Shown: positions 47,013 to 51,159 of the stretch, piece after piece
How the letters are laid out: each line of letters begins with the position of its first letter
Numbering within the stretch: the first letter of the stretch is position 1
From: an uncultured bacterium
GTDB lineage: Bacteria > Krumholzibacteriota > Krumholzibacteriia > Krumholzibacteriales > Krumholzibacteriaceae
Length of the DNA: 64,000 nucleotides
Assembly (NCBI GenBank): GCA_963813815.1
Contig: CAWFAD010000011.1
Coordinates: 64,001 to 128,000, forward strand
Direction: 5' to 3'
The notes under the pieces: generated by a model
What the model saw: only the letters and a program-made list of their open reading frames with translations
Database searches by the model: none
Told to the model about the DNA's origin: nothing
Position numbers and translations under genes: made by a program

Positions 47013-47909
47013 ATGAATGAACGTTATGTATTAAGCGGAAAATATCTCTTGATCGCGGCACTGGCCTCATTATGTGTCCTCGTATCGGTTCAATCCGGCC
47101 TTGCCGGGGAGGCTGAGAGCGCGCCGCCGCAGGAGCAGGGGGGCTACTCGCTCGACCGCGAGCTCGAGGGGATGGAGATCGTCCACCGGTTCCCGGAGCT
47201 CGTCCCCTACGGCGAGGGAGAGCTTCTCACCTTCGCCATACAGTACGGCCTCATTTACGCCGGGGACGCGACGCTCGAGATCAGGAACATAGCCGAGTTC
47301 GACAGCACGCGAGCGTACCATATCATCTCGACCGCGAAAACGAACGGCGCCTTCGACCGCATTTTCAAGGTCCGCGATCGCCACGATTCCTTCATGGATT
47401 TCGACAACCTCTACAGCCTGAGCTTCGAAAAGCATCTTCGGGAGGGCAAATTCAAGCGGGACGTCAAGGTCGTGTTCGACCAGAAGGAGCACATCGCCGT
47501 CTATCCGGACAAGCGCGTTCCGATCCCTCCGAACACGCAGGATTTTCTGAGCGCCCTCTACTACGCGAGAACGTTGAATCTCGGCGTCGGACAGGCGATC
47601 GCCATGGCGAACCACACGGACGGAAAGAACTATCCGATCTTCATCAAGGTGATCCGCCGCGAGCGCGTCAAGGTGCCCGCCGGCGAGTTCGATTGTCTCG
47701 TCGTCGAGCCGGTCCTCCAGACCTCGGCCATCTTCGAAAACAAGGGCAAATTGACAATCTGGGTGACCGATGATACGGTCAAAATGCCGGTGCTGCTCCG
47801 CTCGAAGGTCGTCGTCGGCGCTTTCGAGGCGGTGCTCAAGGACTACCGGCTGAGCCGCGACGAACACCGTGTGATCGATCGAAAGGATTCGAACCCCGGT
47901 GGCGAGTGA
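47013..47909 (+). CDS. DUF3108-like exported protein
   Basis: Signal peptide, GELLTFAIQYG, FKVRD, QDFLSALYYAR, VPAGEF, IWVTDD...PV. AT-rich upstream region. Confidence 0.75.
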   Translation: MNERYVLSGKYLLIAALASLCVLVSVQSGLAGEAESAPPQEQGGYSLDRELEGMEIVHRFPELVPYGEGELLTFAIQYGLIYAGDATLEIRNIAEFDSTRAYHIISTAKTNGAFDRIFKVRDRHDSFMDFDNLYSLSFEKHLREGKFKRDVKVVFDQKEHIAVYPDKRVPIPPNTQDFLSALYYARTLNLGVGQAIAMANHTDGKNYPIFIKVIRRERVKVPAGEFDCLVVEPVLQTSAIFENKGKLTIWVTDDTVKMPVLLRSKVVVGAFEAVLKDYRLSRDEHRVIDRKDSNPGGE

Positions 47910-48846
47910 TTTCGAGGAAATGGATCTCTCCCGGGTCCGGACGAATTCCATTCGCGAGCGGGGGAGCGTCGTGACGATCCGCGATTTCGCCGATCCTTCC
48001 GCGGGCGTTCCGGCCCGCGCCCGGAGGACGGAGGAACCCGCGGAAGCGCTCGACGAGCGCGGGATACGCAACCTCGCGGAGGCGATGCGCGCGATCGCGG
48101 CCGATCGCGGCCGCGAGATCGTCTGGATGATGGGCGCACACCTCGTCAAGTGCGGGCTCTCGCGCTACGTCATCGAGCTCATGCGCGGCGGATTCATCAC
48201 GGCGGTCGCCATGAACGGGGCCGCCGCGATTCACGACTTCGAGATCAGTTTCTTCGGAGAGACTTCCGAGGACGTCGCGCGGAACCTCGGGCGTGGCATC
48301 TTCGGCTTCGCGCGAGAAACGGCGGACGGGTGTTTCGCCGCGGTGGAGAAGGGACGCCGGGAAGGGCGGGGGCTCGGCGAGTCGCTCGGACGATACCTTG
48401 TGGCGAACGATGCGCCGCACGGGGAGTACGGCATCCTCGCCGCGGCGAGCCGTCTCGGCATACCGGCGACGGTGCACGTCGCCATCGGCACCGATATCCT
48501 GCATCAGCACCGAGGATTCGACGGCGCGGCATGGGGCGAGCTCTCGGCGCGGGATTTCAGGATTCTCGCTTCGCGCGTCGAGCGCCTCGGACGCGCGGGG
48601 GGGGTGGCCGTGAACGTCGGTTCGGCCGTCATCTGCCCCGAGGTGTTTCTCAAGGCCTTGAGCGTGGCGCGCAACCTCGGAGCGCCGTTCGACCGGCTCG
48701 TGACGGCGAACATCGACATGACTCAGCATTACCGGCCCCGCATGAACGTGCTCGCGCGACCGTCCGGATTCGGCGGCGACGCGATCGCGATCACGGGGCG
48801 CCATGAAACCGTGATTCCGCTGCTCTATTCGCTCGTTGTCTCCTGA
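47899..48846 (+). CDS. Conserved hypothetical protein with deoxyhypusine-synthase-like fold (GSU2086-like)
   Basis: MMGAHLVKCG, MNGAAAIHDFE, GETSEDV, FG...ET, TVHVAIGTDI.H, GSAV..PEVFLKA, HYRP..NV..RP, GRHE; recognised by eye. Confidence 0.7.
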   Translation: MASDFEEMDLSRVRTNSIRERGSVVTIRDFADPSAGVPARARRTEEPAEALDERGIRNLAEAMRAIAADRGREIVWMMGAHLVKCGLSRYVIELMRGGFITAVAMNGAAAIHDFEISFFGETSEDVARNLGRGIFGFARETADGCFAAVEKGRREGRGLGESLGRYLVANDAPHGEYGILAAASRLGIPATVHVAIGTDILHQHRGFDGAAWGELSARDFRILASRVERLGRAGGVAVNVGSAVICPEVFLKALSVARNLGAPFDRLVTANIDMTQHYRPRMNVLARPSGFGGDAIAITGRHETVIPLLYSLVVS

Positions 48847-48891: not shown

Positions 48892-50214
48892 ATGCACACG
48901 ACACTCGATCGCCCCGGCGGGCGCCGTTCGGCGATGCTCCTCCTCGGGGCGGCCGTGCTCCTCGCGGCTGCGGCGCGGCTCGTCTTCTGTCTCGAAATAG
49001 TCGGGTTCCACGCGCCGCTTCGCGGGGACGAGATCGATTATCACGCGCTCGCTTCCTCCATCGCGGCGGGAGACGGATTCGCCGGCGCGGGGGGGGAAGC
49101 GACGGCGGCCCGGCCGCCTTTGTGGCCGCTCGTTCTCGCGGGGGTCTACCGCCTCGCAGGGCCGAGTCCCGAGGCGGGGAGGGCGCTCGCGATCATCATC
49201 GGAACGCTCGTGGTGCCGCTCGTGTACGCGGCGGCGAAGGGCGCCTTTCCGAAGCGTCCCGCCGTGCCGGCCGTCGCGGCGCTGCTCGCCGCGGTGAACC
49301 CGACGCTCATTTTCATGAGCTCGTACCTCCTCGCCGAGAATCTTTCGATCGTCCTCATGCTGCTCGCCGTGACGGTCGTATCGGCCGGTGTGAGCGGGGA
49401 GCGAGGACTGCGCTCGTATCTCGCGGCGGGAGCTCTTCTCGGGCTCGGAAGCCTCGCGCGTCCGCCGCTCTTTCCGGTCGCGCTCTTCATGGCGGCGTGG
49501 GCAGTGATTGCCGGCGCCGGGGTCTTCCGGCGGCGCCTCGCGAGGGCGGCGGTCCTCGGCGCGGGTCTCGCGGCGGCGCTCGCCCCGTGGGCGGTCCGAA
49601 ACGAGGCTCGTCTCGGCTCGCCCGTGCTCTTCACGACGCACGGAGGCATGACGTTCTATCAGGGGAACAACCCGTCCGTGCGGGACGAGCCCTCTTACCG
49701 TGGTGGAGTCGCGCCCCTCGAGGCGCTTCCCGGCTGGAAGGGCGTTCTGGCGAAGGAGGGAGAGGTCGAGCGCGACAGGGAAGCGTGGCGCCTCGCGAGG
49801 GAGTTCGTCGCCGGCAATCTCTCGAGCGTTCCGCGGATGGCGCTCTGGAAGTTCGTTCGTTTCTGGCGGTTCGGGGGGGACATGGGGCTCTCCGGCGTCC
49901 GGAGCGGGTGGTGGTGGGACAAAGGATCGCGGCTCGGCGCGCTGGCGAGCTCCCTCGACGTTTTTTTCCTCCATTCGATCGTCGTTATCCCGCTCTTCAT
50001 CGCCGGGCTCGCTTTTGCCCTTCGAGAGACGCGCCGGCTCGCGAACCTCCACGCGATCGTCATCGTTCACACGGCGACCGCGCTTTTCTTCTACGGATCG
50101 CTTCGTTCGCGCGCTCCCGTGGAGCCGGTGATAGCGATTTTCGCAGCGTACGCGATAGTGCGGCTCCTCGCGCTCGCCGCCCGGAGGCGGGTCGCCGGCG
50201 ATTTTGCCCGTTGA
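48892..50214 (+). CDS. GT-C fold ArnT-like glycosyltransferase
   Basis: GDEIDY, TAARPPLWP, LLAE, LARP, PWAVRN, FYQGNNP, RSRAP, multiple TMs. Confidence 0.85.
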   Translation: MHTTLDRPGGRRSAMLLLGAAVLLAAAARLVFCLEIVGFHAPLRGDEIDYHALASSIAAGDGFAGAGGEATAARPPLWPLVLAGVYRLAGPSPEAGRALAIIIGTLVVPLVYAAAKGAFPKRPAVPAVAALLAAVNPTLIFMSSYLLAENLSIVLMLLAVTVVSAGVSGERGLRSYLAAGALLGLGSLARPPLFPVALFMAAWAVIAGAGVFRRRLARAAVLGAGLAAALAPWAVRNEARLGSPVLFTTHGGMTFYQGNNPSVRDEPSYRGGVAPLEALPGWKGVLAKEGEVERDREAWRLAREFVAGNLSSVPRMALWKFVRFWRFGGDMGLSGVRSGWWWDKGSRLGALASSLDVFFLHSIVVIPLFIAGLAFALRETRRLANLHAIVIVHTATALFFYGSLRSRAPVEPVIAIFAAYAIVRLLALAARRRVAGDFAR

Positions 50215-50240
50215 CAAAAGCCCCTGATTTGTGCTAACAT
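50211..50240 (+). promoter_or_regulatory. Sigma70 promoter of the polysaccharide locus leader
   Basis: TTGACA-18 bp-TAACAT with TG extended -10. Confidence 0.7.
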
Positions 50241-50246
50241 TCGAGT

Positions 50247-50390
50247 TGCAATAGGAGGAACCATAAAGAGCGTTTGCTATAGGAATTCGCTTTGAAGCTT
50301 TTGTGAGGCACTCCGCCCGCTTTAAAGTGGCGTTTCTATGGCAAACGTTCTCTTTATACCCGGGCGGAGGACTCCGCCCGGGTTTTTCTT
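50247..50390 (+). ncRNA. Putative structured leader RNA/attenuator (or sRNA)
   Basis: A ~95-nt hairpin (50263-50357) with G-U pairs, followed by a terminator. The apical ACTCCGCCCG (50310-50319) duplicates the terminator loop and 3' arm (50371-50380). Confidence 0.6.
50358..50390 (+). terminator. Intrinsic terminator inside the 5' leader
   Basis: ACCCGGGCGGAG-GA-CTCCGCCCGGGT followed by TTTTCTT, ending just before the RBS (50394) of the next gene. Confidence 0.8.
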
Positions 50391-50406
50391 CGTGGAGGCG
50401 CGCATC

Positions 50407-51096
50407 ATGGCTGGGTCGCCGGAACTTCAGGGAGCGGTCTGCGAAAAAGAGCGGATTGCGAGCATCATACGGCTCAAGGCGGATAGGCAGGACAGGGTGT
50501 ATGCGTCCATGAAGCGCCTGACGGACATCATCGTCGCCACTTTTCTGCTCGTCCTCTTCCTGCCGATCATTCCTGTCGTTGCCATTCTGATACGCTTCGA
50601 TTCTCCGGGCCCCATCTTCTTCAAGCAGAGGAGAATCGGAAAGGACGGGAAAGCGTTCGATTTTTACAAGTTTCGGTCGATGGTCTCGGGCGCCGAGAAC
50701 GTCATCGACGCGCTTCGTCCCTTGAGCGGCGTCGACGGCCCCGTTTTCAAGATAAAGGAAGATCCGCGGGTCACGCGTGTGGGTAGATTCCTTCGCCGTT
50801 CCAGCCTCGACGAACTCCCGCAGCTCATCAACGTGCTTCGAGGCGAGATGAGCATCGTCGGCCCGCGTCCCAACCTTCCCTCCGAGGTGTCCCAATACCT
50901 TCCCTGGCAGCGCAAGCGCCTCGATGTCACGCCGGGCATCACCTGTTTCTGGCAGATCGCGGGCAGAAGCCACATTGGGTTCCAGGAATGGATGCGCCTC
51001 GATCTCGAGTATGTCCGCAAGAGAAGCTATGTTACGGACCTCAAGATCATGATGAAGACCGTCCCGGCGGTCATCGCCAGGAAGGGGGCCTACTAG
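50407..51096 (+). CDS. Priming sugar transferase (phosphoglycosyl transferase, WbaP/WcaJ C-terminal-like)
   Basis: KRLTDI, DSPGP, YKFRSM, DPRVTRVGRFLRRSSLDELPQLINVLRGEMSIVGPRP, PGIT. GGAGG RBS. Confidence 0.95.
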   Translation: MAGSPELQGAVCEKERIASIIRLKADRQDRVYASMKRLTDIIVATFLLVLFLPIIPVVAILIRFDSPGPIFFKQRRIGKDGKAFDFYKFRSMVSGAENVIDALRPLSGVDGPVFKIKEDPRVTRVGRFLRRSSLDELPQLINVLRGEMSIVGPRPNLPSEVSQYLPWQRKRLDVTPGITCFWQIAGRSHIGFQEWMRLDLEYVRKRSYVTDLKIMMKTVPAVIARKGAY

Positions 51097-51103
51097 GCTT
51101 CCG

Positions 51104-51120
51104 CGGCACGCATCTTGCAA
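51104..51120 (+). promoter_or_regulatory. Sigma54 -24/-12 promoter upstream of wza
   Basis: CGGCACGCATCTTGCAA (GG-N10-GC, near consensus). Confidence 0.65.
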
Positions 51121-51130
51121 TCGAGAAAAA

Positions 51131-51159
51131 TTGACATAGTGTGCGCATTTTCTTAAATT
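51131..51159 (+). promoter_or_regulatory. Sigma70 promoter upstream of wza
   Basis: TTGACA-17 bp-TAAATT. Confidence 0.6.

Follow-up and report, generated by a model that had tools for sequence, protein, structure and literature searches.

The 64,000-nucleotide stretch of DNA analyzed here (the window) contains, between a promoter and a gene for a sugar transferase, a leader whose folded RNA is 145 bases long and which, judged by comparison of sequences, is a real conserved RNA family that is not catalogued in Rfam. The leader is very probably a three-state transcription attenuator of the priming sugar transferase gene, a reading that draws on sequence comparison and on folding models of its transcripts. 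Given an attenuator, the ribosome is a reasonably probable trigger, and the reading as a whole, in which the attenuator would be tripped by a ribosome presumed to sit at a Shine-Dalgarno (SD) sequence without a normal start codon, is evenly balanced between acceptance and doubt. The family is of interest as an uncatalogued RNA that is fixed across a bacterial order, whose expression platform itself covaries unusually clearly, and whose antiterminator has been remade with differing registers and sequences across lineages.

The original prediction, made from the sequence of the window, had placed a promoter, a three-part rod with G-U pairs and a 20-nt apical loop, and a strong terminator ahead of the gene's ribosome-binding site, and each of these parts was recovered where it had been placed (Table 1). 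The promoter reads TTGACA-18-TAACAT, with 10 of 12 positions matching, and 2 promoter-like sites were found in 2.5 kb, against 0.3 expected. A TTGAC-17/18-TAnnnT arrangement lies 9 to 18 nt upstream of GGAGG in all 47 orthologues, and transcription of the leader is predicted to start near position 50247. The rod segments pair over 8, 15, and 11 bp and include G-U pairs at 6 of 32 core pairs, while the terminator stem of 11 pairs is followed by TTTTCTT and then by the GGAGG and ATG of the gene. The complementarity between CTCCGCCCG in the loop and CGGGCGGAG in the 5′ arm of the terminator is likewise exact, with the final G of CTCCGCCCG doubling as the top pair of the rod. Folding of the leader gave a z-score of −5.8, and none of 200 shuffled sequences was as stable. 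The prediction had overlooked the AGGAGG of the leader, the U-rich tract at the base of the rod, and one paralogous copy in the genome. Its author had not recognized the structure, and the Rfam scan it had proposed agreed with this, as Rfam 15 gave 0 matches in the window at the gathering threshold; in a local search of the leader, the top score was 18.5 bits, where the threshold is 49.5.

Table 1. Features of the leader and its surroundings, in positions of the window.
Feature	Position	Strand	Basis
Sigma70-type promoter (TTGACA, TG, TAACAT)	50211..50240	+	Promoter scan; conserved arrangement in orthologues
Leader SD AGGAGG, lacking a normally spaced start codon	50253..50258	+	Conservation; 16S match
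Rod 5′ strand, predicted anti-antiterminator	50263..50298	+	Folding; covariation
Invariant motif T-Y-T-G-Y-T-A-n-n-G in rod 5′ strand	50273..50282	+	Parsimony changes
Apical loop, 20 nt	50299..50318	+	Sequence; folding
Putative antiterminator 5′ segment CTCCGCCCG	50311..50319	+	Apex-terminator pairing; folding
Rod-core 3′ strand; predicted to refold on itself within the antiterminator	50319..50347	+	Blocked folding snapshot
U-rich tract at rod base; also pairs with 50263-50270	50348..50357	+	T count
Hairpin (50358-50383) and U tract of the intrinsic terminator; putative antiterminator partner in its 5′ arm (50361-50369)	50358..50390	+	Terminator scan; alignment
SD of the sugar transferase	50394..50398	+	Sequence; conservation
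Stand-alone bacterial sugar transferase, PF02397, 229 aa	50407..51096	+	Domain match
Sigma54-like (GG-N10-GC, 51105-51118) and sigma70-like (51131-51159) promoters before wza	51104..51159	+	Promoter scan

The rod's 3′ strand contains an additional ATG that shares the reading frame of the transferase (50338-51096) and would mislead automatic annotation; in the orthologues, the start is the one at 50407.

Of 52 genomes from the order to which the window belongs, likely Krumholzibacteriales, 47 contained the leader according to a covariance model built from 28 sequences. These include 30 of the 31 genomes that are at least 90% complete; the five without a match are 61% to 90% complete. With strict filters, the covariance model found the leader in 0 of 111 sampled genomes from the other orders of the phylum. 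An orthologous priming sugar transferase gene follows the leader in 47 of 47 genomes, so that the predicted position upstream of this gene holds across homologues, and the gene on the upstream side varies. The same transferase followed in 17 of 18 metagenome matches, the remaining one lying at a contig end. The window's own genome carries 2 copies and each of the 46 others carries 1. Dispersed copies of a MITE or REP element, a competing explanation raised in the original prediction, were therefore not what was found, and such an element is ruled out by the order-wide distribution, the fixed downstream gene, and the variable upstream gene; the few copies per genome and the retention of G-U pairs speak against it as well. 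In most genomes of the order, genes of the DUF3108 and GSU2086 families (47013-48846 in the window) precede the leader, and an ArnT/PMT-like gene upstream of it (48892-50214) was seen only in part of the window's genus.

The second copy in the window's genome (G000:C7:237080-237254; L161/L002) has its own promoter and is located between clpB and a Peptidase_C25 gene, a site at which no copy was found in the other genomes searched. GGAGG and the motif are retained, as is a terminator that is almost unchanged. A 9-nt segment of the loop has been lost, and its upper strand TGGAGTTTTT pairs with the apex of the terminator over 10 bp (z −2.7). A GTDB-wide search with an exact pattern returned 92 loci, of which 17 are full-length matches to the model, none of these in a new context. 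The next-best locus (L124:268-412), on a Saprospiraceae contig, is a near-perfect inverted repeat with about 50 bp per arm, MITE-like and unrelated to the leader. Among viral sequences, the leader was present in 0 of 100 loci checked, out of at least 120 matches listed with 29 of 64 parts scanned.

Covariation among homologues, a check put forward in the original prediction, supported the rod. In a MAFFT alignment of 46 sequences, with one near-duplicate omitted, 90% of the cells in rod and terminator were paired, and two-sided changes were found in 18 of 31 pairs, or 12 of 24 for the rod alone. This level was reached by none of 500 shuffles, a test that is inflated by kinship, and slid controls, which retain the kinship, paired at 35% to 49%. 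Across the orthologues, the rod varies in length from 21 to 36 bp.

Because its register moves, the pairing between apex and terminator is invisible in alignment columns, and it was tested per sequence instead. A contiguous helix of at least 8 bp between the apex and its own terminator was present in 40 of 47 leaders; when an apex was combined with the terminator of another genus, 23% of the pairs had such a helix. When each genus was represented by a single genome (19 genera, 20 draws), the cognate pairs gave z-scores of −6.8 to −8.2, matched by 0 of 5,000 permutations in each draw, and the z-scores against shuffled apices combined to about −11. The helices are unrelated in sequence, as exemplified by CTCCGCCCG/CGGGCGGAG in the window, GGTTGTTATTGGGT/GCTCAATAGCAGCC in L153, and AGTATCACCGGTT/GACTGGTGATGCT in L155. 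In the window's genus, the pairing register is supplied by the 3′ half of the loop; in six other genera, CTTCAGY in the upper 5′ strand pairs with GCTGAAG, and in L154 CTTCGGT pairs with GCCGAAG. Thirteen new metagenome sequences, retrieved with a pattern that leaves loop and terminator unconstrained, contained the helix in 12 cases, against a background of 47% and with many of them kin. The helix was shorter than 8 bp in 7 of 47, in a test for which the terminators of L018 and L151 had been trimmed too short; the terminator hairpin of L160 is degenerate. The mutually exclusive terminator and antiterminator folds that had been suggested for the window thus recur as a complementarity that is kept while both sequences turn over (40 of 47 leaders, 19 genera), and the pairing nucleotides of loop and terminator are the least conserved in sequence.

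Two features expected of an attenuator were found, namely an intrinsic terminator between promoter and gene, with 4 of 47 leaders having a weak U tract (at most 4 T in 10 nt), and a conserved alternative pairing that excludes this terminator. Of the two options in the original prediction, an attenuator or a riboswitch, the conserved exclusive folds favor the first; the low conservation of the pairing positions speaks against the second.

How the two folds might exchange was examined in snapshots, in which transcripts ending just past the terminator loop were subjected to nested folding. The antiterminator formed in 2 of 47 free RNAs. When the 5′ end was held unpaired up to 15, 20, 25, or 30 nt past the SD, it formed in 11, 32, 36, and 38 of 47, respectively; in a control with shuffled terminators, it formed in 99 of 470. 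The blocked snapshot of the window copy contains a 9-bp antiterminator that closes around a hairpin of the rod's own 3′ strand. Between 9 and 11 of the 47 leaders (e.g., L151, L147, L027, L164, and L153) did not switch in the nested model. In the full-length RNA at equilibrium, the terminator wins in almost all cases, even when blocked, and the switch would therefore have to be kinetic. The geometry differs between genera. In the window's genus, a linker of 12 to 13 nt, or roughly 72 to 78 Å when stretched, is set against a rod of about 32 bp, or about 90 Å, so that formation of the antiterminator more likely depends on opening of the lower rod. The pseudoknot-like fold on an intact rod that had been envisaged would be strained there; in most other genera, where the linker is by rough geometry long enough for a kissing form, that part of the proposal stands.

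We propose that, when nothing interferes, the rod folds before the other structures and keeps the antiterminator segment trapped at its tip, upon which the terminator would form, leaving the gene OFF and releasing an RNA of about 140 nt. If some 20 to 25 nt downstream of GGAGG were covered, the lower rod would be unable to close, and the freed apex would capture the emerging 5′ arm and loop of the terminator, allowing the polymerase to read through (ON). The covering body would presumably be a 30S or 70S ribosome held by SD pairing, which could be non-initiating or could initiate poorly at the invariant UUG/CUG 14 to 20 nt away, and a pause at the U-rich tract would buy time for it to dock. 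A toeprint 16 nt past the start codon is given in the available text of the work on the vmlR leader (PMC9226507), and the block threshold in the snapshots corresponds to the size of a ribosome footprint, taken as the toeprint distance plus normal spacing. For this reason, we read the rod as an anti-antiterminator that is opened by a ribosome at the leader SD. As any bulky binder of the 5′ strand gives the same folding result, the simulation does not identify the ribosome.

The conservation of the leader SD is consistent with such a role. Its GGAGG (50254-50258), upstream of the first hairpin, is invariant in 47 of 47 leaders, with 0 parsimony changes on the gene tree compared with 3 to 18 at flanking sites; third codon positions had a mean of 12.4 changes, and the SD of the gene itself is GGAGG in 45 of 47. 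The 3′ end of the 16S rRNA carries ACCTCC, matching the leader GGAGG, and the five invariant bases together with a T or A form the exact complement of the anti-SD. In the 3 to 12 nt after the leader GGAGG, ATG, GTG, or TTG occurred in 0 of 47, and near-cognate starts at 4 to 10 nt occurred in 15 of 47, spread over three frames. At 14 to 20 nt from the SD, an invariant UUG/CUG precedes a Leu codon and opens reading frames of 2 to 100 codons (2 codons in 26 of 47). In the window, the motif contains TTG CTA TAG at 15 nt from GGAGG, which is possibly a start-Leu-stop micro-ORF. A normally spaced start with a conserved upstream ORF, as would be expected of a leader-peptide attenuator of the trp or vmlR type, was not found. 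The 5′ strand of the rod also has a codon-like pattern in the frame [VIF]-C-[Y/stop]. In 4 of 47 leaders, stops interrupt this frame between the SD and the Cys codon, and in 12 of 47 a stop comes directly after Cys; a leader peptide was rejected because the frame has no usable start.

Motif positions 0, 5, 6, and 9 showed 0 changes, and their pairing partners changed 14, 7, 8, and 6 times. The A at position 6 is invariant, yet unpaired in 19 of 47 leaders. With letters fixed while their partners change, and with an A that is often unpaired, the motif appears to be read as sequence in addition to its pairing. A sigma-dependent pause at a −10-like T-x-TG-x-TA was considered a weak candidate, the T at −7 being absent in most members. 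The U-rich tract after the rod (at least 5 T in 8 nt in 47 of 47) is possibly a pause site or a first terminator. A G(−10/−11)..Y/G arrangement, which we take to be the pause consensus, accompanies the tract in 36 of 47 leaders and is absent from the window copy.

The closest parallel to this arrangement is the vmlR leader of Bacillus subtilis, a ribosome-dependent attenuator with an anti-antiterminator, an antiterminator, and a terminator, as described in the available text of PMC9226507. Both leaders have an SD in a single-stranded 5′ segment just before a long first hairpin. A ribosome at the base of this hairpin would release the antiterminator, which would then enclose a hairpin formed by the 3′ part of the first; both also have a U-rich, pause-like tract and an intrinsic terminator just upstream of the SD of the gene. 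However, vmlR has a normally spaced AUG upstream ORF that is essential for induction and senses antibiotics (PMC9226507, available text), whereas here AUG, GUG, and UUG are missing 3 to 12 nt past the SD in 47 of 47, and the UUG/CUG at 14 to 20 nt is the sole invariant candidate. The controlled gene, which here encodes a priming sugar transferase, is different as well, and the comparison does not imply homology. Changing the vmlR start codon to CUG abolished induction (PMC9226507, available text), so that an SD alone might hold a ribosome too briefly. It is doubtful, though worth entertaining, that docking of a 30S subunit on an SD without start codon and without translation opens a 30-bp rod and turns transcription ON, and simple docking leaves the invariant motif of the 5′ strand unexplained.

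Instead of a ribosome, the lower rod might be opened by a trans-acting RNA or an RNA-binding protein that recognizes GGAGG and UYUGYUA. Conservation of the 5′ strand exceeds the demands of pairing, as in the position-6 A that is unpaired in 19 of 47, and the folding switch requires just a block. We consider such an opener unlikely; the five invariant bases and their T or A are an exact complement of the anti-SD. In several lineages (L142, L149/L154, L160, and L153), the loop of a very small covarying hairpin contains GGAGG, with stems such as GTACA/TGTAC, AGTAAA/TTTACT, and GAAATA/TATTTC; the window copy is not among these. We take these hairpins to resemble the CsrA consensus, but csrA occurs in 10 of 52 genomes and is absent from the window's own genome and from 15 of 15 congeners, and regulation by CsrA was rejected with the gene missing from 42 of 52. 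A NusG paralogue is no better candidate, with one PF02357 gene in each of 5 genomes out of 5. As for an RNA in trans, the complement TAGCAGA was not found in the rRNA operon or in tRNAs, and perfect complements of at least 13 nt to the loop, the 5′ strand, or the SD region were not found elsewhere in the genome.

Alternatively, the rod could be an RNase III substrate, cleavage of which would either sever the antiterminator (OFF) or trim the read-through mRNA and alter its translation or stability, with the conserved letters of the stem acting as cleavage determinants. Rods of 21 to 36 bp fit a required length of about 22 bp or more, and an RNase III gene was present in 5 of 5 genomes tested. 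By eye, the conserved UGCU center, flanked three positions out by a U-A/U-G pair, agrees loosely with the preferences for a WSSW center and for A-U at D/D′ given in the available part of PMC6212723. As a motif, however, WSSW is weak; the constraint affects one side, the 5′ strand, and mismatches are tolerated beside the supposed site. A precedent is offered by the 5′ UTR hairpin of Haemophilus influenzae hmw (PMC12721329, available text), which resembles the leader as a long hairpin upstream of a surface-related gene; an antiterminator-terminator pair is not described for hmw in that text, and cleavage is here a candidate feature. The invariant GGAGG is left unexplained by RNase III, and we regard this reading, cleavage determinants included, as quite unlikely to account for the leader. 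Processing by RNase III can nevertheless coexist with a ribosome-tripped attenuator.

The original prediction had also offered a stand-alone sRNA of about 145 nt. The element has its own promoter and terminator and is single-copy and order-wide, resembling a housekeeping RNA; a discrete RNA of about 140 nt could act in trans through GGAGG, used either as a seed or as a decoy for ribosomes. Expression of the gene would then come from leaky read-through, and the apex-terminator helix would be a tertiary kissing contact, for which the linkers suffice in most genera. Against this, the apex in the window's genus pairs with most of the 5′ arm of the terminator, excluding the hairpin, and the leader is strictly linked to one downstream gene while its upstream gene varies. 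An independent sRNA is therefore improbable, although the terminated product of about 140 nt would still exist. Its identity as 6S RNA (RF00013) was rejected, with a separate 6S RNA found elsewhere in 5 of 5 genomes.

Least probable is a small-molecule riboswitch in which a ligand stabilizes the loop-terminator pseudoknot. In guanidine-IV (Gd4v) riboswitches, too, two hairpins are joined by pairing of the hairpin 1 loop with a second, terminator hairpin, which prevents termination (PMC9788692, available text); here, however, the pairing has no conserved nucleotides and shifts register between lineages, the rod is of about 30 bp, sequence conservation is found in a simple helix and in an upstream SD, and Rfam gave no match. 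As the pairing nucleotides are the least conserved, they offer no candidate ligand pocket.

Polysaccharide operons are often controlled by antitermination through RfaH/ops, UpxY, LoaP, and EAR. The leader resembles these in being an element upstream of polysaccharide genes that would affect termination, but it appears to be a local fold switch for one gene rather than a processive antitermination system. Dependence on RfaH, UpxY, or LoaP is disfavored, as the single PF02357 gene per genome (5 of 5) leaves no NusG paralogue. The sequence GGCGGTAG, which we take to be the ops core, is absent from the leader in the window, and Rfam gave no EAR match in the window. In L215, the terminator arm contains GGCGGTAG, paired by a 12-nt complement in the loop, which is probably a coincidence. 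The available parts of PMC5737381, bioRxiv 2025.01.31.635925, and PMC13285730 describe nothing that matches the leader, nor was a description found in a literature search whose scope ended short of subscription journals and motif-discovery supplements.

The sugar transferase is predicted to be the priming phosphoglycosyltransferase of a Wzx/Wzy-type polysaccharide locus that resembles PEP-CTERM EPS loci. It is followed by wza-, chain-length-, ATPase-, and tyrosine-kinase-like genes, with scores just below the cut-offs of the PEP-CTERM EPS families. Directly past the transferase stop codon, a sigma54-like GGCA-N6-CTTGC element was seen by eye in all 45 loci inspected, overlapping the sigma70-like promoter. 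As the export genes have conserved promoters of their own, the leader likely controls mainly one gene, that of the priming transferase.

With the ribosome as trigger, this promoter-leader cassette of only 200 bp would tie the first step of polysaccharide synthesis to the availability or initiation state of ribosomes, and ribosome supply would be linked directly to a step that consumes lipid carrier. Should the invariant SD function in the absence of a start codon, this would be attenuation by ribosome docking alone, and the leader would be a direct gauge of free ribosomal subunits.

A second, translational layer is possible at the level of lineages. The 5′ end of the leader, in the bases that follow GGAGG, pairs strongly with codons 2 to 5 of the gene in 12 of 46 loci (p ≤ 0.03 under synonymous recoding; one locus was dropped, as its start was not parsed). 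The pairing differs in sequence per lineage (L137, L157, and L166), and L160 shows a two-sided change (p 0.13). In the window copy, the corresponding pairing, of 50253-50264 with 50410-50421, is weak (p = 0.72).

Finally, the 16S gene near G000:C7 263240 begins with GAGTTCGATCC, in place of GAGTTTGATC, which we take to be the usual start, and likely mismatches a common forward primer.
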